A model generated the notes under the pieces. It was given only the letters and a program-made list of their open reading frames with translations. It did not search any database and was not told the DNA's origin. A stretch of DNA of 64,000 nt from an uncultured Thermoleophilia bacterium (GTDB taxonomy: Bacteria > Actinomycetota > Thermoleophilia > Gaiellales > Gaiellaceae). Positions within the stretch are counted from its first letter, which is position 1. Each line of letters begins with the position of its first letter. Shown one piece after another: positions 13,392-64,000 of the stretch. Location: positions 4,722 to 68,721 of the forward strand of contig CAVVWG010000009.1 of assembly GCA_963751875.1 (NCBI GenBank). The letters are read 5' to 3'. Both the position numbers and the translations under genes were made by a program.

Positions 13392-15410
13392 ATGGCTGAG
13401 CTCGGGCGGGCGGCGCTCGTCGTCACGCTGGGCCTCTGCCTGTACGCGACCGTGGCAGGCGCCTACGCGGCCTCGCGACGGCGGCGTCGGCTCGCCCAGT
13501 CCGCGCGCAACGCCCTCATCGCCGCCTTCGGCTCGACGGTCGTCGCGGCCGGCGTGCTCGCGGCCGGGTTCCTGCGCAGCGACTTCTCGCTCACCTACGT
13601 CGCCGACCACTCCAACCGGTCGCTCGGCGGCGTCTACAAGCTGTCGGCGTTCTGGGGCGGGCAGGAGGGCTCGCTGCTCCTCTGGCTCCTGATCCTGACC
13701 GGGTACGCCGCGCTCGCCGTCTGGGTCAATCGCAACCGCACCCGCGACCTCGTCGTCTGGGTGACGCCGGTGCTCGCCGCGATCGCGGTCGGCTTCTCGT
13801 TCCTCCTCGTCGTCGTGGCGAGCCCGTTCGCGACGCAGGTGACCCCGCTCGACGGCGCCGGGCTCAACCCGAGCCTCCAGAACCCGTACATGATGGCGCA
13901 CCCGCCGTTCCTCTACCTCGGCTACGTCGGCCTGGCGGTGCCGTTCGCGTTCGCGATGGGCGCACTGCTCTCGGGTCGCACCGACGAGCGCTGGATCGTC
14001 GCGACGCGCCGCTGGACGCTGATCGCCTGGACGGCTCTCGGCGTCGGCCAGCTGCTCGGGGCGCACTGGGCCTACGTCGAGGTCGGCTGGGGCGGCTACT
14101 ACGCCTGGGATCCGGTCGAGAACGCCGCCCTGATGCCGTTCCTCGCCGCCACCGCCTTCCTCCACTCGGTGATGATCCAGGAGAAGCGCGGGATGCTGAA
14201 GGTGTGGAACGTCGTTCTCGTCGCGCTCGCGTTCTGCCTCTCGCTGTTCGGCACCTTCCTGACGCGCTCCGGGGTCGTCAACTCGATCCACTCGTTCTCG
14301 CAGAGCGACATCGGCCCGTGGTTCCTCGCGTTCATCGTGATCGCCGTCATCTTCTCGACGGCGCTGATCATCTGGCGCCTGCCGCTGCTTCGCTCGACGA
14401 CGAGGCTCGAGTCGCTCGTCTCGCGCGAGGCGGTGTTCCTCTACAACAACCTGCTGCTCGTGGCGCTGTGCCTGACGATCCTCTGGGGCGTCGCCTGGCC
14501 GATCCTCTCGGAGGCGGTTCGCGGCACGTCCGTGGTCGTCGGCCGCCCGTACTACGACTTCTTCCTCCGCATCTTCGGGCTGCCGCTGTTGCTGCTGATG
14601 GGCGTCGGGCCGCTGATCGCCTGGCGGCGCGCTTCGCTGCGCGGGCTCGGGCGGACCTTCACCGTGGCCGGCCATCGTCTCGGTCGCGACGGGCGTCGTG
14701 CTCCTCTTCCTCGGGGCGGGCTCCTCGATTCCGGGGCTGATCGCCTACACCTTCTCGGCGTTCGTGCTGGCGGCGATCGCGCTCGAGTTCGTCCGGGGCA
14801 CGAAGGCGCGCAAGGCGCTCTCGAACGAGTCGTGGCCCGGCGCCTTCACCTCGCTGATCGGGCGCAACCGGCGCCGCTACGGGGGCTACGTCGTGCACGT
14901 GGCGATCGTCCTGCTGGCGATCGGGATCGCCGGCTCGAGCGCCTACGACTCGGTCGTCGAAGGGAAGCTCGCGCAGGGGCAGTCGCTCGAGGTCTCGGGG
15001 TACAAGGTCACCTACACCTCGCTCACGGAGCGCGACACCCCGCACGCAGCCGAGGTGCGCGCGCACCTGCTCGTGAGCCGGAACGGCAAGGATCTCGGCA
15101 CGCTCGAAGCGGGGAAGAACTCGTACAAGATCGCCGGTCCCGATCCGCAGGTCTCGTCCGAGGTCGGCATCCGCACCGACTACCCGACCGGTGAGGACCT
15201 GTTCGTGATCCCGGAGCAGATCAACGACGACGGCTCCGTCTACTTCCGCATCTTCGTCAAGCCGCTCGTGAACCTGATCTGGCTCGCCGGGATCGTGTTC
15301 CTGCTCGGGTCGGTGATCGCGCTCTGGCCGGATGCGCGCGAGCAGCGTCGCCTCGCCGTGCGCTACGACGAGGCCGGCAGCCCGGCCAGCCCCCCGCCCG
15401 CGGCCGGTGA
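13392..15410 (+). CDS. ccmF: cytochrome c heme lyase CcmF (frameshifted)
   Basis: WGGQEGSLLLW, LNPSLQNPYM.HPP, WGGYYAWDPVEN, GTFLTRSG..SIHSF, KPLVNLIW. Confidence 0.95.
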
Positions 15411-16313: not shown

Positions 16314-16682
16314 CTACGATGCGAGCTTCAGTCGGTATCGCTGGGCGAGGCGCTCGAGATCGCGCCGGTAGAAGAGCTTGACGTTGACGTGCGGGTACTG
16401 CTCGCGGAGCTCGCGAAGCTTGCGGTTCTTCCGGGTCACGAGCGACTGCTTCATCACCGTCACCTCGATGTAGAGATCCTCGTCCGGAAGGTAGAAGTCG
16501 GGCGTGAACGCCCGCGTGACGCGTCCCTCGTCGTCACGCTCGAGCACGAACGAGGTCGGCTCGTAATCCCAGGCGACTCCGTACCAGTCGAGGATCCTGG
16601 CGCATTCGAGCTCGATTCGGTTCGCGAACCGCGGCGGCTCGGTGCCGCGGTAGGCCTGGAACCGGTGGGATTCCGACCGCAC
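16314..16682 (-). CDS. PD-(D/E)XK nuclease-like protein
   Basis: FANRIELECARILDWYGVAWDYEP...FTPDFYLPDEDLYIEVT. Confidence 0.7.
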   Translation of the reverse strand: MRSESHRFQAYRGTEPPRFANRIELECARILDWYGVAWDYEPTSFVLERDDEGRVTRAFTPDFYLPDEDLYIEVTVMKQSLVTRKNRKLRELREQYPHVNVKLFYRRDLERLAQRYRLKLAS

Positions 16683-16711: not shown

Positions 16712-16751
16712 CCCTCTCGACCGGGGCGGCGTCCCCACCTAGACTGCGGCC

Positions 16752-17562
16752 ATGGCCAACGGCGCCGCCAACCCCTTCAGGATCGCGCATTTCTCCGACC
16801 TGCACTGCGGGGAGCAGTACTTCGAGGCGACCCTGCTCGACCGCGCGATCGCCGAGATCAACGAGCTCGCAGCCCGACATCGTGATCTGCTCCGGCGACC
16901 TCACGAGCTTCGGGTTCAAGCACGAGTACCAGCTCGCCCGCCAGTACCTGGACAAGATCGAATGCGAGTCACTGGTCGTCATCCCCGGGAACCACGACTC
17001 GCGCAACGTCGGCTACGTGCACTTCGAGGAGCTGTTCGGCGAGCGCAACAGCGTCCTGCGCAAGGGCGGGGTGACGGTCGTCTCGATCGACTCGACCGAG
17101 CCCGATCTCGACCACGGCCAGATCGGGCGTGGCCGCTACCCGTGGATCGAGCGCGAGTTCGCAGCTCAGCCCGCAGACCTGAGGGTCTTCGTGCTGCATC
17201 ACCATCTCTTGCCTGTGCCCGGCACCGGGAGGGAGCGAAACGTCGTCTACGACGCGGGAGACGTGATCGAATGCCTCCTGCGAGCGGGCGTGCAGCTCGT
17301 TCTCTCCGGTCACAAGCACGTCCCGTACGCGTGGCGGCTCGAGAACCTCTTCGTCGTCAACACCGGCACCGTCTCGTCGCTGCGCTTGCGGGGGAACTCT
17401 CGCCCCTGTTACAACGTAATCGAGATCACCGGCAGCCATGTCGACATCTGGCGCCGGCATCCGTTCCACGGACAGGAGCGCATCATCCAGTTCTCCACCG
17501 ACACCTTCGAGTACGAGAAGTACACCGGCCGGATCGAGTCCGAGGTGACAGCGCGCTCGTGA
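16752..17562 (+). CDS. calcineurin-like metallophosphoesterase (CpdA/Icc-like; frameshift near 16870)
   Basis: FSDLH, SGDLT, PGNHD, LHHH, SGHKH. Confidence 0.92.
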
Positions 17563-18840
17563 GAGCGGTGGCCGTGATCGACGGAGAGCATTACGCCTCC
17601 GTGGTCAGGGACGCCCTCGCGGAGCTGCCGCAGGAGATCGTCGCCTGCGTCCTCGTCGGCGGCACCGAGAAGCTGCGTGGCGGGGAGGAGTACGGCGTGC
17701 CGCTCGCGTCGTCGCTCGAGGCGGCAATCCTCGAGCACGCGCCCGATGTCGTGCTCGATCTCTCGGATGAGCCCGTGCTCGGGCCTCCGGCCACGGTTCC
17801 GGCTCGCCGCCCGCGCCCTGGCGCTCGGCGTGCCGTACGAGGGCGCCGACTTCAGGCTCGAGCCGCCGCGCTTCGAGCCGATCGGGACGCCGTCCGTCGC
17901 CGTGATCGGCACCGGCAAGCGGGTCGGCAAGACGGCCGTGACCGGGCACGTCGCGCGGGTGATGGCCCGCGATCGCCGCGTCGTCGTCGTCGCGATGGGG
18001 CGAGGGGGGCCGGCCGAGCCCGAGGTCGATCGACGTGCAGCCGACCGTGGCCGACCTGCTCGAGCTCTCCCGCGCCGGGCGCCATGCGGCGTCCGACCAC
18101 CTCGAGACGGCAGCCCTGACGGGGCTGCCGACGGTCGGTTGCCGGCGCTGCGGTGGTGGGCTCGCCGGGGCGGTCGGTGTCTCGAACGTTCTCGCGGGCA
18201 CGCGGATCGCCGAGGATCTCGGGCCTGACCTGATCGTGCTCGACGGCAGTGGCGCTGCGTTGCCGCCGATCGCGGCCGAGCGCCGCATCCTCGTCGTCGG
18301 CGCGCATCAGGATCACGCGGTTGCGACCGGGTATCTCAATCCGTACCGGGCGCTGCTCGCGGATCTCGTCGTCGTGGCGATGGCCGAGGACGGCGTCGAG
18401 CACGGTCGCGCTCGCGGCACAGCTCTCCGAGCTGACGCGACCGGGCGTCCCCGTCGTCCGCGCCGTCTTGCGTCCGCGGCCGCTCGCCGACGTCCGGGGC
18501 CGGAGGGTCGCGTTCTTCGGCACCGCGCCCGCCGCGCATCACGAGCGGATCGCCGAGCATCTCCGCTGCGGCCTACGGCGCCGATGTCGTCTCCGTCTCG
18601 GGCAGCCTCTCCGACCGCGCTGCGCTCCGGCGCGAGCTCGCCGGCCTCGATGCGGACGTCGTGGTCGTCGAGATCAAGGCCGCCGCGATCGACGTCGTCG
18701 CCGAGGAGGCGGCGCGGCGCGGAATCGAGGTCGTTCTGGCCGGAAACGACGTCGTGCCGCTCGCCGGCGAAGCCGATCTCGACGCGGAGCTGGAGCGGCT
18801 TGCGGCCGAGGCGATCGCGAGCGCGATGGTGGGCGTGTGA
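17559..18840 (+). CDS. cpgS: cyclic 2,3-diphosphoglycerate synthetase (several frameshifts)
   Basis: IDGEHY, GGTEK, DLSDEPVL, YEGADF, GTGKRVGKTAV, VAMGRGGP, HAASDHLE, GCRRCGGGLAG, DGSGA, EIKAAAIDVV. Confidence 0.88.
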
Positions 18841-19760
18841 GCGAGCGCCGCTACCTGGCGCCGCTGCCGCTCGGCGGCGACGAGGGGCCGCCGTGGTCGA
18901 AGGGGCTGATGGCGCGCGCGCTCGCCGCGACGGGCCTGACGCCGACGAGGGCCTACGACCTCGCGCGCCTGGCCGAGGCGGACATGGGCAAGCGCCGTGA
19001 GGTCGAGCTCGATCTCGACCGGCTGTCGGAGCTTGCGACGGAGGTGCTCGGAGAGTCCGAGGCCGCCAGGACGATCCGGCGCCTGCGCCGGCTCCAGGTG
19101 CTCCAGCAGCTCGAGCTGCCGATCTTCCTCCTCGTCGGCGGTGCGACGGGCACCGGCAAGTCGACCCTCGCGACCGAGACGGCGCACCGCCTCGGGATCA
19201 CGCGGGTGACCTCGACCGACTTCATCCGGCAGACGATGCGGGCCTTCTTCTCGCGGGAGTTCATGCCGTCGGTGCACTTCTCGAGCTTCGACGCCGAGCT
19301 GGGGCTGAGCCGCGCCGACGAGGATGTGGCCGATGCCGCATTGCTCGGGTTTCTCGACCAGACGCGGAACGTGCTCGTCGGCGTCGAGGCGGCGATCGAC
19401 CGCTCGCTCACCGAGGGCTGGTCGATGGTGCTCGAGGGCGTGCACATCGTGCCCGGGATGATCTCGGTCGACCGCGCCGACGCGCTCGTCGTCCAGTGCG
19501 TGGTCGCGATCAGCGACGAGGATCTCCACCGGAGCCACTTCTGGGTGCGGGACGCGACGACCGACGGCCTCCGGCCGCTCGAGAAGTATCTCGACGGGAT
19601 GACCGAGATCCGGATGATCCAGGACGTCCTGCTCGAGCGCGCCCGCCGCTTCGACGTGCCCGTGATCGAGAACACCTCGTTCGACGAGGCGATCGGCCAG
19701 ATGCTCGACCTCGTGCTGACCGGGGCGGAGAGACTGGCGCCGGCCCGGACGACAGGCTGA
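18837..19760 (+). CDS. pgk2: 2-phosphoglycerate kinase
   Basis: ATP-cone-like PWSKGLMARAL; GGATGTGKSTLA; RLGITRVTSTDFIRQTMR; EGVHIVPG; IRMIQD. Confidence 0.88.
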   Translation: MSERRYLAPLPLGGDEGPPWSKGLMARALAATGLTPTRAYDLARLAEADMGKRREVELDLDRLSELATEVLGESEAARTIRRLRRLQVLQQLELPIFLLVGGATGTGKSTLATETAHRLGITRVTSTDFIRQTMRAFFSREFMPSVHFSSFDAELGLSRADEDVADAALLGFLDQTRNVLVGVEAAIDRSLTEGWSMVLEGVHIVPGMISVDRADALVVQCVVAISDEDLHRSHFWVRDATTDGLRPLEKYLDGMTEIRMIQDVLLERARRFDVPVIENTSFDEAIGQMLDLVLTGAERLAPARTTG

Positions 19761-19771
19761 AGCCTGTCGCC
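19743..19771. repeat. REP copy overlapping the pgk2 stop codon
   Basis: GCCCGGACGACAGGC-TGAA-GCCTGTCGCC, near-identical to the arm at 11689. Confidence 0.8.
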
Positions 19772-19807
19772 GGCTGAGGCCTGCCGCCTCACAGCTAGAG
19801 TGGCCGC

Positions 19808-20107
19808 ATGGTCACCGAGAACGACGTCATCGAAGCGCTGCACGGGGTCGAGGATCCCGAGCTCGGCATGGACATCGTCGAGATCGGCCTCTTCTACGAG
19901 GCGGAGATCGAGGGCTCGAACGTGAAGATCATCCACTCGCTGACCTCGATGGGCTGCCCGGCGGGCCCGATGATCCAGGAAGGCATCCACGACGCCGTCG
20001 CGGCGCTGCCCGGCGTCGAGAAGGTCGACGTCGAGCTGACGTTCGACCCCCCGTGGACGCCCGACCGGATGTCGGACGACGCCAAGTTCATCCTGGGTTT
20101 CGGCTAG
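19808..20107 (+). CDS. DUF59/SufT-like metal-sulfur cluster assembly protein
   Basis: VEDPELGMDIVEIG, LTSMGCP, FDPPWTPDRMS. Confidence 0.92.
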   Translation: MVTENDVIEALHGVEDPELGMDIVEIGLFYEAEIEGSNVKIIHSLTSMGCPAGPMIQEGIHDAVAALPGVEKVDVELTFDPPWTPDRMSDDAKFILGFG

Positions 20108-55747: not shown

Positions 55748-56723
55748 GTGAGAGGGTCCGACTACGTCGTGAAGCGGATCGCGTACGCGATCCTGACCGT
55801 CTTCATCGCGATCACTCTCAACTTCGTGCTCTTCCGCGCCCTCTCCGGTGACGCGGTCTCGGCGTTGCGCTGCAAGCAGTGCAGCAAGGCGTTCAAGGAG
55901 GAGCAGCGCCGCGACCTCGGCCTCGACCAGTCGAAGTGGGTGCAGTACAGGCTCTACCTCGCCTCGCTCGCCCGCGGCGATCTCGGCAAGTCCGTGCCGT
56001 CCGAGAAGCCGGTCCGGGGCGAGCTCGTCGAGCCGATCAAGAACTCGCTGCCGATGATCGCGCTCGGGACGCTCTTCGCGATCGTCTTCGGCACGCTCGT
56101 GGGGGTGGTCGCGGCGTGGCGCCGCGGCACGTTTGCCGACAAGGGCAGCCTCTACACGGCGCTCGGCTTCTACTCGATGCCGACCCAGTGGCTCGGCCTG
56201 GTGCTGATCTTCTTCGTCGCGGGCGCCGTCGGCCTGCCGACCTCGGGCATCAAGACGCCGACGCTCGGGCTGTTCTCCGACGCGTCGACGTGGGACGGTC
56301 TTCGTCGATCGGCTGCGTCACATGATCCTGCCGGCGCTGACCCTCGGGCTCGTCCTCTACGGCGACTACGCGTTGATCGTCCGCTCGGCCATGCTCGAGA
56401 CGCTCGGCGAGGACTACGTCCTGACGGCGCGGGCCAAGGGGCTGAAGAACTGGACGATCGTGCGCAGGCACGGGCTGCGGAACGCGATGCTGCCGATCAT
56501 CACGCTCGTCGCGCTGTCGCTCGGCTTCATCATCGGCGGCTCGATCACGGTCGAGTACGTCTTCTCGTACCCGGGCCTCGGCCTGCTGACGGTGGAGGCG
56601 ATCGACAAGCGCGACTTCCCGCTCCTGCAGGCGATCTTCATGCTGCTGACGCTGTCGGTGATCGTCTTCAACCTGATCGCCGACCTGCTCTACTTCAAGT
56701 TCGATCCGCGGGTGACGGCATGA
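55748..56723 (+). CDS. Opp/Dpp ABC permease B (frameshift)
   Basis: EDYVLTARAKGL, HGLRNAMLP, EYVFSYPGLG. Confidence 0.92.
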
Positions 56724-57689
56724 GCCTGATCGAGCCGCTCCAGTCGGCCGACCCGGATGCGCTCGCCGAGGGGATCGCCCGGAGCGGACGCCGCGGCTTC
56801 GTGCGGACGGCGATCCTCGGCAACCGCCAGGCGATGATCGGGCTCGGCGTGCGTGGTCGTTCTTCGTCCTCGTGGCGCTGTTCGCGCCGTGGCTCGAGCC
56901 GTACGATCCGACAGCCAAGACGGGCCCCGTCTACGCGCCGCCGAGCAGCGCGCACTGGCTCGGCACCGACGACGGCGGCGTCGACATGCTCTCGCTGATC
57001 ATCGCCGGCTCGCGCGTCTCGCTCGGGGTCGGGTTCCTGGCCGCGCTCGTCGCGATCCTGATCGGCGGCACCGTGGGCGTGCTGTCGGGGTTCTTCGGCG
57101 GCGTCACCGACACGATCCTGATGCGCTTCACGGACTACATGCTCGTGATCCCCGACATCCCGCTGATGATCATCGCCGCGGCGCTGTTCGGCCGGAACCT
57201 CGTCAACATCATCGTGATCATCGGGATCATCTACTGGACGAGCACCGCCCGGCTGATCCGGGCTCAGGTGATGACCGTGCGCGAGCGGGTCTACGTCAAG
57301 CGCGCGCAGAGCGCTCGGGGCGGGAAACCGGCGGCTCGTGTTCAAGCACGTGCTGCCGCAGGTGGCGCCGCTTCTGGTCGCCAACACGGTGCTGATGATC
57401 GCGCTCGGGATCTTCGCCGAGACGTTCATCACGTTCCTCGGCCTCGGCGACCCGAGCACGATCTCGTGGGGACGCCTGATCGAGAACGCGTTCACGGGCG
57501 AGGCGACGATCAACAACGCGTGGTGGGCGATCGTGCCACCCGGGCGTGTGCGTCACGCTCGTGATCCTCGCCTGCACGATGGTGGGGCAGTCGGTCGAGG
57601 ACTCGCTCAATCCGCGGCTCCGCGTCGGCCACGTCTCGGTGCGGCGGTTCCGGATGCGGCCGCTCGGCGGCAAGGCAGGCCCGGAGTGA
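56720..57689 (+). CDS. Opp/Dpp ABC permease C (frameshifts)
   Basis: HWLGTDDGG, ARLIRAQV, HVLPQV, SWG. Confidence 0.92.
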
Positions 57690-58680
57690 GCGCTCGGCAG
57701 CCGCTCGTCAGGGTCGAGGACCTGCACGTCTGGTTCGACGCTGCCGGGGGGCGGCGAGCTTCACGCCGTGCAGGGCGTCACCTTCGAGCTGAACGAGGGC
57801 GAGCGGATGGGCCTCGTCGGCGAGTCCGGCTGTGGCAAGACGACGACGATCCTCGCGATGATGGGGCTCCTGCCCGCGAGCGCGTCGGTGTCGGGGAAGG
57901 TGATCCTGGCCGGCGAGGACATCCTCGCGCGGGGGGAGGACTCGGTCAGCCCGCATCGCTGGACGCGACATCTCGATGGTCTTCCAGGGCGCCATGAACG
58001 CGTTCAACCCGGTGAAGACGATCGGCGCGCAGATCGCCGAGCCGATGGAGCTCCACGGCTTCGCCTCCCGCAAGGAGGCGCGGCTGCGGGTGGGTGAGCT
58101 GCTCGAGCTCGTCGGCATCTCGGCCGATCGGGCCGACCGCTACCCGCACGAGTTCTCGGGTGGCATGCGCCAGCGCGCCGCGATCGCGATGGCGCTCGCC
58201 TGCGCGCCCAAGGTGCTGCTCGCCGACGAGCCGACGACCGCGCTCGACGTGATGGTGCAGGCGCAGATCCTCGAGCTGCTCATGAGCCTCAGCTCGACCC
58301 TCGGCAAGGAGCTCGGCCTGACCGTGATCCTCGTCACGCACGACCTCCCGATCGTGGCGCAGGTCTGCGATCGCGCCGCGGTGATGTACGCAGGCGAGAT
58401 CGTCGAGATGGCCGAGATGTCGACGATCTACCACGATCCGCGCCATCCCTACACGCGCATGCTCTTCGCCGCCACGCCCGATCTGCTCGGCGACGACGAG
58501 GTGATCTCGATTCCCGGCGCGCCGCCGCGGCTCGACCGCGAGATCGTCGGCTGCCCGTTCCGGCCGCGATGCGACTCGGCCTTCGAGCCGTGCGCGACGG
58601 TGCATCCGCGCCGCGCTCGAGCCGAGGCCGCGGCATCAGGCGCTCTGCCATCTCAACGACGCGACGATGAAGGCGGCCTC

Positions 58681-58684
<4 letters not shown>
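57686..58684 (+). CDS. Opp/Dpp ABC ATP-binding D (frameshifts)
   Basis: GESGCGKT, YPHEFSGGMRQR, ADEPTTALD. Confidence 0.93.
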
Positions 58685-59711
<1,027 letters not shown>

Positions 59712-59756
59712 AAGGCGACGGCGAGCAGGCTGTCAGCCGCTCGCCCGGCGGTTGCA

Positions 59757-61732
59757 TCAGGCAAGCCGCCGCGGGAACGACCGCTCGAACCGCCGCTCGC
59801 GGTAGAACGCCGTCTCGCCGGCCTCCGGCGCCGAGCTCCTCGGCGATGAGCGTGATCACGACGTGGTACGCCGTCGGCGTCGGAGCGCAGGTCGAGCGTC
59901 GCCTCCGTTCGCACGTCCGCCTCGGGCCAGGTGATGCGGTAGACGGTGCGCGCCCCGGGCCCACGCGAGCGCAGGGTCGTCCTTCGAGACGCCGGTCGTG
60001 CCCTCGTACCGCTCCTCGACCCGCGCCCCGAACGGCGCCTCGTAGTTCGAGCCGTGATCCCGTGACCGCAGCGCGACTCGTGCGCCGATCTGGTCGTCCT
60101 CGAGCCTCCAGACCGTCGGCGGCTGCTCGTCGTCCGGCGTCCGGCGCATGCGTGTCCTTGCCGGTCGTCGGCGGCAGCACCGGCGGCGGGCAGCGGCGAG
60201 CGGCCCGTCGAGCACCGGCAGGACGAGCTCGACGCTCGCGCGATCGACCTGCGAGCGGCGCGCCGCTCGGCGGCGGCCAGATGTTCGGCCAGTCGGCGCC
60301 GGCGAGCGAGAGCCGCACGCGATGGCCCGGCTCGAAGATCCACGAGGTCGCCTCGAGCTCGATCTCGACCTCGGTCGGGACGCCGGGCTCGAGCGCGACG
60401 CGGAGCGTCGTGGCCGTCGCGGTGCGTGAGGTTGAGCAGCCCGCGGCCGGCGAGGGCGGAGGTGCCGTCGGGGAAGACGTCGCAGAGCTTGGCGGAGAGG
60501 TACGCGACGGGAACCGGCGAGGTGACGGTGAGCCGCACGCGCGGGTGGCCCATCACGTCGAGATCCGCGGCGAGCGGCTCCCAGTCGTAGGTGAGCGAGA
60601 GGGCGTCGTCGACGCGCTGGTCGTCGGGGAGCCCCCACGGGAGCTTCCCGGCGCACGAGATCCACGCCGTCTGGCCGACGTCGCCGCGGACGTGGATCGT
60701 GTCGGTGCCCTCGCCCGTCGGGCCGCAGCACCTGCTCCGTGAGCCGCTCCGGCGGCCACGTCGCCTCGCTGCGCCACTCGCCGCGCATCTCGGCGAGATC
60801 CGGCGCCGGGCCGCGTCGAGCGGCGGGCGAACACCGCGATCGGCGGCTCCTCGTCGACGCCGTTCTGCTCGTCGGCGAGCCAGCGGCGGAACCAGCGGAT
60901 CAGCTCCGGGACGAGGTCGATGTGCGGCCCCGGCAGCGCGGTGGCGGTCGACCCGTGCCCCCACGGGCCGAGGATCACGCGCTTCGGGCACGAGAGCGCC
61001 TCGAAGCCGCGGAAGGCGATGTTCGTGTAGCCGTCGGCCCAGCCGGCGACGATCATCGTCGGGCAGGTGATCCGGCCGTAGTCCGGCCGCACCGAGCCGT
61101 GCCGCCAGTACGGCCCGTCGACCTGCTCCTCGATCCAGCGCAGCAGCCATGGCTCGGCGTCGTCGACTCGCCGCTCCCACTCGCTCGCGCCAGCCGGGGC
61201 CGAACACGGCGGGCACCGGCGGCAGCGCGTTGCCGGCGACCATGTAGAGCTCGTAGTCGATCAGGTCGATCGCCTTGAGCGCGCCGCCCATGTAGTGGAC
61301 GTCGTCGTTGTAGCGGTCGTCGGAGGCGTAGATCGGCACGATCGCGTGGAGCGCCGGCGGGCGCAGGCAGGCGACCTGGAGCGAGTTGAAGCCCGACCAC
61401 GAGGTGCCGTACATCCCGACGCGGCCGTTCGACCACTCCTGCTCCGCCAGCCACGCGATCACCTGGCAGATGTCGTCGAGCTCGGCCGCCGTGTACTCGT
61501 CGGTCGCGATTCCCTCGGACGAGCCGGTGCCGCGGATGTCGAGCCGGCAGACCGCGAAGCCGCCCTCCTCGCAGAGCCGCTCGTACTCCGAGGCGTAGGC
61601 GGACGTGAGGTCGTCCATCCGGTAGGGCAGCGCCTCGATCACGACCGGTGCCGGGCGCTCGTCGGGCAGCCAGAGCTGCGCCGCGAGGCGCGTGCCGTCG
61701 GCCACGGTGATGAAGGCGCGCCGGTGCTCCAT
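59757..61732 (-). CDS. CocE/NonD family hydrolase (frameshifts)
   Basis: DGTRLAA, LPYR, DIRGTGSSEG, WSNGRVGMYGTSWSG, GPWGH. Confidence 0.92.
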
Positions 61733-61765
61733 CGGCGCAATCCTCCCAGGTAGGGTCGGGCGGCG

Positions 61766-62919
61766 GTGCACCTGCAACCGACAGCCGAGCAGATCGCGCT
61801 CCGGGCCGATGCTGCCGCCTTCTGCGCCGGCTTGCGGCCGTTGCTCGAGAGCGGACCCCGAGTGGTGGCGCCAGGGAATGCTCTCCGACGGCGACTCGCG
61901 TCGCGGTCAATCGCGCGCTCGGCGAGGCAGGCTGGATCGGGATGTCGTGGCCGGTCGAGCTCGGTGGGCGCGGGCTCTCGCGGCTGACGGCGACGCTCGT
62001 CGAGGAGGTCTTCGGCTACCACTGGCTGCCGCTCTCCTCGTACCTGCTCTCGTACAAGACGATCGGTGCGGCGATCGAGCGCTTCGCCTCGCCCGAGCTC
62101 GTCGAGCGGCTGCTGCCGCCGATCGCGCCGCGGCGAGCTCGTCTTCTGCCAGGGCTTCTCGGAGCCGGGCGCGGGCAGCGACCTCGGCGCGCTGACGACG
62201 AGGGCGGAGCTGCGCGGCGACACCTACGTCGTCGACGGGCCACAAGATCTGGACCTCGAGCGCGCAGCTCGCCGACTGGATCTATCTCGCCGTCCGCACC
62301 GACCCCGACGCCAAGCACCGCGGGCATCTCGGTGCTCGTCTGCCCGGTCGACACGCCCGGGATCGAGGTGCGAACGTTCCCGACGCTCGGCGGCGGGACG
62401 CTCTGCGAGACGTTCCTCGACGGTGTCGAGATCCCGGCCGCGAACCTCGTCGGCGAGGTCAACGGCGGCTGGGACGTGCTGATGTACACGCTCGACTTCG
62501 AGCGCGTGACGGCCGAGAAGATCGGCGGCGCCGCCTGGGTGCTCGACGCCGTCGAGGAGCGGCTCCGCGCGACCGACCGGCTCGACGGCGGAGCGCGCGA
62601 CCGGCTGCTCGCGCCTGCGCGGCGAGCTCGAAGCGGCGCGGCTGCTCTCGTTCCGCGCCGCCGACATGCTCGACCGGGGCTGCCCGGCAGCGCGACCTCG
62701 GCGATGGCGAAGCTCGCGGGGGCGCGGCTGATGCAGCGGGTCGGGGATGCGTCGATCGACCTGCTCGGTCTCGAGGGGCTCGGCGATGCCTCGCCCGAGG
62801 CGGCGATCCAGGGTCGCGCGGCGGCGCTCTACCGCGCCTCGGTCGGCTCGACGATCGCCGGCGGCACGGCCGAGGTGCAGCAGCTCGTGATCGCGCGCCG
62901 GGGGCTGGGGCTCCGATGA
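61766..62919 (+). CDS. acyl-CoA dehydrogenase (frameshifts)
   Basis: WPVELGGRG, CQGFSEPGAGSDL, GEVNGGW, TIAGGTAEVQ. Confidence 0.92.
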
Positions 62920-64000
62920 GCTTGCCGCTCGAAGGCGTGCGCGTGGTCGAGGTGGCGCAGTACGTGGCCGGGCCGCTCGCCGGGCTCGCTGCTCGCCGAG
63001 CTCGGCGCCGAGGTGATCAAGGTCGAGCCGCCGGGCGGCGACGCCTACCGGCGGGTGATGCCCGTTGCGGCCGGGTTCGGGCGCTACTTCGTCCCGCTCA
63101 ACCGTGGCAAGCGCTCGGTCGTGCTCGATCTCAAGTCCGCCGCCGGCCGCGCGCTCGCTCGCGCAGCTCGTCGGCACCGCCGACGTCGTCATCCACAACG
63201 CGCCGCCGCCGCGCGCGGCGACGTTCGGGCTCGGCTGGGAGGGGCTGCATCGTCGCGCACCCGGCGCTCGTCGTCGGCGTCGTCACCTCGTTCGGCCCGC
63301 ACGGGCCGCTCGCCGGGCTGCCCGCCTACGACCTCGTCGCCCAGGGGCGCTCCGGCCTCCTGACCTCGCACGCCTCGCCGGCGACCGGGTGCCGGTGCGC
63401 GCCGGCGGGATCCCGATGGCCGACCTCACGGCGGGGCACCTGCTCGCGTCCGGCGTGCTGGCGGCGCTCGTTCGCTCGCGGACGACGGGGGAGGGGCAGC
63501 TCGTCGAGGTGTCGCTGCTCGGTGCCGCGCTCGCCGTGCAGATCCAGGATCTCGTCTGGCTCGAGGGTGAGGCCGACGGCGGTGCCGCCGCCGCGACCCG
63601 CGCCGATCTCGAGGCGCGCGCCGACGAGATCGCCGGCGGCCTCGCGATGAACCCGTACTACCGCTGCTACGAGGCAGCCGACGGCTTCCTCGCGCGTCGC
63701 CTGCCTCAACCTGGCGCAGCGCGAGGCGTTCCTCGGCGCTGTTCGGCCTCGACGATCCGACGATCGCGGCGCCCGACCTCGTTCCCGCCGACCCGGCGGT
63801 GCTCGGCGGCGAAGCAGCGGCTGACGGCGGCGATCGAGCGACGCGATCGCGGCGGCTCCGGTCGAGGAGTGGCTCGCGCGGCTCGGCGCGGTCGGCGTTC
63901 CGGCCGGCCCGGTGCTCGTCGCGCGAGACGGTCCATGCCGACGCGCAGGTGCGGGCGAACGGGCTGATCCAGGACGTCGACGCAGCCGGGGCTCGGCGCC
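62916..64000 (+). CDS. CaiB/BaiF family CoA-transferase, partial (frameshifts)
   Basis: PLEGVRVVE, LGAEVIKVEPP.GD, NRGKRSVVLDLK, AYDLVAQG. Confidence 0.92.

Follow-up and report, generated by a model that had tools for sequence, protein, structure and literature searches.

A metallophosphoesterase gene accompanies the cyclic 2,3-diphosphoglycerate synthesis genes of an actinobacterial operon and is a candidate for the degrading enzyme

Results

The window analyzed here is a stretch of 64,000 nucleotides (G000:C9:4722-68721) from contig CAVVWG010000009.1 of an uncultured Thermoleophilia bacterium of the Gaiellaceae. Its forward strand carries a three-gene unit at 16752-19760, read from the sequence, that encodes a metallophosphoesterase (MPE), a homologue of cyclic 2,3-diphosphoglycerate (cDPG) synthetase (CpgS) and a homologue of 2-phosphoglycerate kinase (2PGK). 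The MPE accompanies the synthesis pair across two domains and is a testable candidate for the cDPG-degrading enzyme. What is new is the conserved partner phosphoesterase; the synthesis pair is already machine-annotated. The reading we prefer, at somewhat less than even confidence, is that the operon is intact and encodes cDPG synthesis together with an MPE that would act as the cDPG ring hydrolase. More tentative is the wider proposal that the MPE clade represents the long-missing cDPG hydrolase and that cDPG, far from being restricted to hot-spring methanogens, may be a widespread, turned-over phosphate or energy store or stress metabolite of soil and sediment Actinomycetota, Thermoplasmatota and other phyla.

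The genes are joined by GTGA overlaps, as the original prediction described. The MPE gene (16752-17562, +) starts with ATG at 16752 and has 269 codons after removal of one extra base. The GTGA at 17559-17562 is both its stop and the start of cpgS (17559-18840, +; GTG start, 425 codons after removal of four extra bases). The GTGA at 18837-18840 ends cpgS and starts the intact 2PGK gene (18837-19760, +; GTG start), which is one open frame of 307 codons with its stop at 19758-19760. The three genes probably form a translationally coupled, leaderless operon that is intact in the living organism.

The phosphoesterase gene is linked to cpgS in Actinomycetota

The adjacency and co-occurrence of this MPE clade with cpgS, which the original prediction had singled out for checking across bacteria and archaea, were strongly positive. 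The Actinomycetota sample comprised 401 genomes that are at least 80% complete, and an MPE orthologue was defined by E < 1e-30 and 50-88% identity. The gene cpgS was found in 230 genomes, the MPE gene in 229 and the 2PGK gene in 229, and the taxonomic families that carry them coincide. Both cpgS and the MPE gene are present in 226 genomes, over half of the sample, with cpgS alone in 4, the MPE gene alone in 3 and neither in 168; the two genes also occur together in several other phyla. The sample includes five unpublished genomes (G041, G088, G128, G160 and G347), each with all three genes. None of them supplies a locus used here, and without them the counts are 225 (cpgS), 224 (MPE) and 224 (2PGK) of 396. 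Related genomes are not independent, so no P value is given; the pattern recurs over dozens of families.

In the ~95 genomes with both coordinates listed, cpgS directly follows the MPE gene on the same strand, after a gap of 2 to ~820 nt. The order MPE-cpgS-2PGK occurs in Gaiellales, Rubrobacter and low-GC Actinomycetota, and the presence of cpgS in Rubrobacter agrees with the original prediction. Within Gaiellales, the taxonomic order to which the window belongs, the three genes are colinear in three families and were not found in two others. The hosts of the operon are mesophilic soil and sediment bacteria. Several families of the class Thermoleophilia lack all three genes, so not every lineage of the class is suited to tests of the system.

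Rubrobacteraceae carry two further arrangements. MPE-cpgS is followed by glpX, the gene for a class II fructose-1,6-bisphosphatase, and the 2PGK gene lies elsewhere (L160:1086-4430, L161:1346-4673); this adjacency links the module to gluconeogenesis in the family. A recent second MPE copy is convergent with a SAM hydroxide adenosyltransferase (DUF62) gene (L152:4009-5788, L153:3891-5636, L154:3353-4992). A more distant MPE subclade (L155, L156) was found in a genome without cpgS.

One phosphoesterase clade is linked to cpgS in two gene orders

Species genomes were scanned with a degenerate GCRRCGGG pattern that used AGR arginine codons only and favors lower-GC genomes beyond the high-GC relatives. 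Type A loci have the order MPE-cpgS-2PGK and belong to Actinomycetota, including Rubrobacter, Hydromicrobium and Humimicrobiales. Type B loci are tightly packed in the order cpgS-2PGK-CBS pair-MPE (L047:1238-5483, L089:935-5155, L065, L025, L136 and L138). Their hosts are nine Thermoplasmata/Thermoplasmatota metagenome-assembled genomes (MAGs), one Thermococci MAG, Cloacimonadota, Spirochaetales and Mcinerneyibacterium, a distribution that suggests horizontal spread of the whole module. The CBS pair gene product has 143 aa. The type B MPE, at ~500 aa, holds two copies: the N-terminal one is active, and the second, fused to it and 32% identical, is degenerate and has lost the catalytic residues. 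Type C loci have a solitary cpgS and were found in Methanobacteriaceae and Methanobrevibacter.

In a maximum-likelihood tree, all linked MPEs of both locus types group with the best Methanobacteria paralogue in a single clade (98/100 support), and the other MPE paralogues fall outside it. That one MPE clade stays with cpgS in two domains and in two gene arrangements is strong evidence of shared function. As judged from this linkage, a functional tie between the clade and the cDPG pathway is well supported.

Archaeal co-occurrence was counted in the class Methanobacteria; a draw at phylum level brought in largely the same genomes and added no variation. Both cpgS and the MPE gene are present in 132 of the 151 genomes, cpgS alone in 8, the MPE gene alone in 6 and neither in 5. 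The MPE orthologue thus occurs in 138 genomes, and small genomes of thermophile size (1.2 and ~1.7 Mb) hold both genes; cpgS is near-universal in genomes of 1.2 to 3.2 Mb. Methanobacterium has up to three MPE paralogues, and the closest shares 46-48% identity with the actinobacterial protein. In the Methanobacteria examined, cpgS, the MPE gene and the 2PGK gene are unlinked, so the label "methanogen-type operon" given to the unit in the original prediction is misleading; the operon form belongs to Actinomycetota and is rearranged in Thermoplasmatota and some other bacteria. The Methanobacterium and Methanobrevibacter MPE gene has a PUA/TGT-C2 (archaeosine-type) gene on one side and an NYN-domain ribonuclease gene on the other (L146:406-3619; L144, L145, L147). 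This neighborhood is conserved and unrelated to cDPG.

CpgS and 2PGK are homologues of the archaeal synthesis enzymes

The genome G004 belongs to the same genus as the window, and its CpgS orthologue (P0002) is 91% identical to the window protein over the 120-aa stretch compared. Residues 3-398 of P0002 match the Methanothermus fervidus cDPG synthetase (PDB 8ORU/8ORK) with E 1e-81, and a second solved synthetase, 9SXB, is matched with E 1e-79. In 8ORU, 2,3-diphosphoglycerate (2,3-DPG) is held by K145 and R146 of the P-loop (Walker A) and by E45 (with K46) of the partner subunit (PMC10690619). The residues E37, K38, K120 and R121 of CpgS correspond to E45, K46, K145 and R146 and are invariant in an alignment of 25 bacterial and archaeal sequences. 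The window frames contain the CpgS motifs DGEHY, GTGKRVGKT, AMGRGGP, HAASD, GCRRCGGG and GGTEKL. More than 8000 protein clusters match CpgS, and close relatives bear the precomputed PF27272. The JGI and NCBI records of close relatives, such as those from a Gaiella sp. and a Thermoleophilia bacterium, bear the name "(cyclic) 2,3-diphosphoglycerate synthetase", so annotation pipelines already know the bacterial gene pair.

The best NCBIfam matches of the 2PGK homologue are PRK12337 (262.9 bits against a cut-off of 603; a longer fused form) and PRK04220 (251 bits against 343). Profile searches, suggested earlier for both synthesis enzymes, thus return 2PGK models as the best families at scores below the curated cut-offs, so 2PGK is the nearest family and formal membership is not reached. 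The score with the mevalonate-3-phosphate 5-kinase model (87 bits) is far below those of the 2PGK models. The protein has the P-loop GGATGTGKST, its gene is translationally coupled to cpgS, and it is 90% identical to P0003 of G004. These comparisons support cpgS and the 2PGK gene as a genuine homologue pair whose encoded substrate-binding residues are conserved. The two add new bacterial members to a known pathway and are already annotated in databases.

The phosphoesterase belongs to a distinct clade

Pfam PF00149 (Metallophos) matches the main window frame of the MPE gene with E 5e-14 and the intact G004 orthologue P0001, which is 92% identical to the window protein, with E 1.5e-19. The window carries the motifs SDLH, GDL, GNHD, HHH and GHKH. 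An alignment of 30 clade members has D15, H17, D48, N79, H80, H148-150, H186 and H188 invariant, and the set of catalytic residues is complete. The same alignment contains the invariant clade-specific motifs PxPGTGRERN, DAGD, RG and YN, with several arginines, which are absent from generic MPE profiles. These arginine-rich motifs would suit a small polyanionic substrate.

Database names for the relatives are CpdA and Icc (JGI) or plain metallophosphoesterase. The MPE scores 40.2-40.8 bits against the NCBIfam cyclic AMP (cAMP) phosphodiesterase model PRK11148 (CpdA/Icc), for which the cut-off is 225, so CpdA and Icc are superfamily-level labels only. The AlphaFold model (pLDDT 87) has the MPE fold, and the nearest structures are Rv0805 and GpdQ (TM 0.63-0.69, 17-21% identity). 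Membrane anchoring was considered and rejected: a Kyte-Doolittle scan finds no membrane segment in any clade MPE (highest 19-residue mean 0.8-1.3), a result with which peripheral binding is compatible. The MPE is probably a soluble, dimeric, binuclear enzyme of a distinct clade. Prediction of an MPE-CpgS complex with both proteins supplied as alignments returned no support, which carries no weight either way on binding.

The frame shifts are attributed to the assembly

The deposited MPE gene shifts frame once and cpgS four times, each by one extra base, in line with the frameshifts noted at first reading. The two genes change frame, and therefore the MPE and CpgS motifs listed by the original prediction, all of which were found, are scattered over several frames. 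DNA alignment of the window with two colinear same-genus genomes (G004 and G017; 84-87% DNA identity) reveals exactly five 1-nt insertions, near 16870, 17791, 18028, 18407 and 18567. Beyond these, the genes have no frame-breaking difference from either genome, no stop codons and no larger lesions. The corrected lengths of 269, 425 and 307 aa match those of intact orthologues; the G004 genes are intact (268, 425 and 304 aa) and have the same GTGA overlaps.

Metagenome contigs from three independent DNA runs (X1-X3; sediment and rhizosphere) and one soil RNA run (X15) were also compared. These contigs are 96-99% identical to the window and omit one letter at 16868-16870, 17793, 18027/18029, 18407 and 18568/18572. 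The extra base in the MPE gene (16868-16870, +) is absent from G004 and G017 and is left out by contigs of all four runs. The others lie in cpgS (+). For the first (17791-17793), X1 omits the letter at 17793 (depth 9.7/9.7). For the second (18027-18029), X1 omits 18027 (14.5/14.5) and X2 omits 18029. The third (18407) is omitted by X1 (10.8/12.8) and X3 (20.5/20.5), and the fourth (18563-18568) is omitted at 18568 by X1 (13.9/13.9) and X3 (20.5/20.5). Each of the three genes is covered in part by RNA-library contigs from X15, one of which spans the cpgS/2PGK junction; DNA carry-over is possible, and these contigs are not counted as proof of expression.

Alignment with G004 over 52.9 kb yielded 62 isolated 1-nt insertions in the window and 7 deletions, an insertion rate of 1.2 per kb that is 9 times that of deletions. 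The insertions are spread over positions 1-64000 (for example 14661, 26045, 36701 and 56298-63981) and are densest in 56-64 kb, so gene calls in the window need a frame-shift-tolerant reading. The same kind of insertion splits ccmF into two frames near 14661. The source genome is 2.9 Mb in 25 contigs and only 64.75% complete, and other few-contig, low-completeness relatives carry similarly split genes. An assembly prone to insertions, for example one from unpolished long reads, would give such a pattern.

We judge the five frame shifts to be assembly errors rather than decay, and cpgS is most probably intact in nature. It is very improbable that the operon is decaying here, with five real shifts and the MPE gene and cpgS as pseudogenes. 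The deposited sequence does hold the five extra bases, some contigs keep extra bases, and contigs without the base at 16869 account for only about half of the total depth. However, all five are single-base insertions of the kind that occurs window-wide and also breaks ccmF, the nearest contigs from independent runs lack the five bases, and the absence of stops or larger lesions goes with ~91-92% identity to intact orthologues in the stretches compared. Programmed frameshifting was rejected because the relatives and independent contigs lack the extra bases and like insertions are spread over the window.

Discussion

Proposed function of the operon

We infer all of the enzymatic activities of the operon, those of the synthesis pair from homology to the M. 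fervidus enzymes. The 2PGK homologue would phosphorylate 2-phosphoglycerate (2-PG) to 2,3-DPG, and CpgS with ATP would close 2,3-DPG to the cyclic pyrophosphate cDPG. The MPE would then open the phosphoanhydride of cDPG to regenerate 2,3-DPG, placing the making and breaking of the compound in one operon. The metallophosphoesterase superfamily cleaves phosphoanhydrides as well as esters, LpxH-type enzymes being an example. The balance between synthesis and hydrolysis may be set after translation, as in ppk-ppx or cphA-cphB, and the CBS-pair gene of the type B loci would fit a regulated system. Recombinant cDPG synthetase alone turns 2,3-DPG fully into cDPG in vitro (PMC12136491), so the MPE is not needed for synthesis. 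A protein that is dispensable for synthesis and yet keeps a conserved place in the operon would therefore act in the turnover or control of the phosphorylated compounds of the pathway. Hydrolysis of the cyclic anhydride is the most economical account of such a role and the most likely one, and a hydrolase function is plausible on the comparisons made here. In this scheme cDPG would be a turned-over phosphate or energy store or a stress metabolite, not a bulk solute.

Several observations weigh against this reading of the operon. The MPE-cpgS association is weak in Methanobacteria, where both genes are nearly universal, and the MPE gene there is far from cpgS and the 2PGK gene and lies among RNA-related genes. 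Some members of the MPE clade come from genomes without cpgS (G034, G157). The 2PGK scores, as described, are below the NCBIfam curated cut-offs. A search of the open-access literature for cDPG in Rubrobacter, Gaiella, Thermoleophilia and Acidimicrobiia found no paper reporting the compound in a bacterium. The Rubrobacter solute surveys, as summarized in PMC6741124, list mannosylglycerate, trehalose and di-myo-inositol phosphate and no cDPG; such lists would be expected if the pool is small and turned over and cDPG is not a bulk solute. Co-transcription of a synthetase and a hydrolase risks a futile cycle unless it is regulated. Finally, the cDPG hydrolase activity of Methanothermobacter thermautotrophicus is described as membrane-bound, and no membrane segment is predicted in the MPE clade. 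The predicted solubility counts against a simple identification of the MPE with the methanogen hydrolase.

The main alternative is that the MPE is a phosphomonoesterase for 2,3-DPG or another phosphate of the pathway, returning 2-PG or 3-phosphoglycerate and phosphate with the ring left closed. The linkage evidence is the same for this role, the MPE fold supports monoesterase, diesterase and anhydride chemistry (the nearest solved relatives being GpdQ and Rv0805), and the glpX gene that follows MPE-cpgS in Rubrobacteraceae encodes another gluconeogenic phosphatase. A 2,3-DPG phosphatase and a ring hydrolase are inseparable by sequence. The argument turns on the coupling: an upstream phosphatase that drains the substrate of CpgS would oppose synthesis more directly than a ring hydrolase would, and we consider the phosphatase unlikely. 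A departure at the level of the pathway itself, in which the bacterial CpgS and 2PGK use other substrates, or their product is a signal or cofactor precursor that the MPE finishes or trims, is a rather unlikely account. It draws on the modest identity to the archaeal enzymes (35-40%), the sub-cut-off 2PGK scores in a family that includes mevalonate-3-phosphate 5-kinase, the Rubrobacter solute lists and the mesophilic soil and sediment hosts. The four residues that hold 2,3-DPG are nevertheless invariant across bacterial and archaeal members, and the same three families co-occur in both domains. The near-universal presence of cpgS in Methanobacteria genomes of every sampled size also argues that the family is probably not bound to one lifestyle in that class either.

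It is improbable, too, that the MPE is an ordinary cyclic-nucleotide phosphodiesterase of the CpdA/Icc kind, adjacent to cpgS through regulation or historical accident. The JGI names, the nearest solved structure (Rv0805) and the RNA-related surroundings of the Methanobacteria orthologue point that way. They are opposed by the 40 bits scored against a cut-off of 225 with the cAMP phosphodiesterase model, by a linkage kept in two gene orders and two domains with near-perfect co-occurrence within the phylum, and by the clade-specific arginine-rich motifs.

Comparison with known systems

The enzyme families of cDPG biosynthesis in M. fervidus and Methanothermobacter (8ORK, 8ORU; PMC10690619, PMC12136491) are both encoded in the operon. 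CpgS is homologous to the M. fervidus synthetase over its full length and retains the Walker A motif together with the Glu/Lys and Lys/Arg pairs that bind 2,3-DPG. The host here differs in being a mesophilic soil or sediment actinobacterium, with ~35-40% identity to the archaeal enzymes and one coupled operon that includes a third gene. The three genes of the Methanobacteria examined are unlinked, and the product of the bacterial enzymes is a predicted one.

The hydrolase activity of M. thermautotrophicus is inhibited by K+ and phosphate, and the review that describes it names no gene (PMC1224877), in agreement with the earlier statement that the methanogen activity lacks an assigned gene. This enzyme would run from cDPG to 2,3-DPG, the reaction proposed for the MPE, whose orthologue is common in Methanobacteria. 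The difference is that the methanogen enzyme is known by its membrane-bound activity, with no sequence linking it to the MPE.

The class III phosphodiesterase-like metallophosphoesterases Rv0805 of Mycobacterium tuberculosis, GpdQ of Enterobacter aerogenes and CpdA/Icc share the fold and the five metal-binding motifs. The MPE is probably dimeric like Rv0805 and GpdQ, and the long archaeal form is a fusion of an active and a degenerate copy. The MPE differs from these proteins in its low identity, its score far below the CpdA cut-off and its own PxPGTGRERN, DAGD and RG motifs. The ppk-ppx (polyphosphate) and cphA-cphB (cyanophycin) operons co-transcribe a synthetase and a degrading enzyme, with the balance set after translation. 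They resemble the proposed make-and-break pattern and differ in enzyme families and compound; the degrading role of the MPE is a proposed one.

Significance

The compound cDPG is stated to be exclusive to (hyper)thermophilic methanogens (PMC10690619). The literature searched contains no mention of the bacterial cpgS/2PGK pair and still calls cDPG methanogen-only. If the proposed function is correct, a gene would be assigned to the orphan cDPG hydrolase activity and the range of this phosphorylated metabolite would extend to abundant soil bacteria. The self-contained make-and-break operon, and its second form with a CBS-domain sensor, would provide a testable model of pool control that may bear on phosphate economy and on stress survival in soil. 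cDPG is under development as a protein-stabilizing extremolyte (PMC12136491); the hydrolase would be one to avoid in cDPG production hosts and could also serve as an analytical tool.

Promoter, 3′ end and neighboring genes

The -10-like hexamer TAGACT noted in the original prediction is present at 16740-16745 (+), 6 nt before the ATG of the MPE gene. A TA[G/C][A/G][C/A]T hexamer is kept 6-8 nt before the start codon in 12 relatives, and the DNA farther upstream diverges. A sigma-70 consensus scan, which requires a -35 box, gave no promoter match at the operon, so the conserved -10-like box is the sole basis of the promoter call. Leaderless actinobacterial transcripts usually have such a box a few nucleotides ahead of the start codon, and TAGACT is a probable promoter of this type. 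The stop codon of the 2PGK gene lies inside a stable stem-loop at 19745-19773 (+; RNA fold -22.6 kcal/mol, z -5.85). The stem-loop is perfect and lacks a U tract; G004 has it as well, and in G017 it is deleted. It is possibly a terminator or a stabilizer of the 3′ end.

The operon is preceded by a divergent small gene and, before that, by ccmF, and is followed by a SufT-like Fe-S assembly gene; a zinc alcohol dehydrogenase gene lies on the opposite strand at the 3′ side. The divergent gene on one side and the downstream gene with its own promoter box on the other indicate a self-contained three-gene operon. The product of the divergent gene (16314-16682, -; 122 aa) has a weak, sub-threshold similarity to phage endonuclease I (E 7e-4). 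The SufT/DUF59-type gene (19794-20107; PF01883, E 1e-18) is directly 3′ of the operon and has a TAGAGT box 7 nt before its ATG, a probable second leaderless promoter with the same layout as that of the operon.

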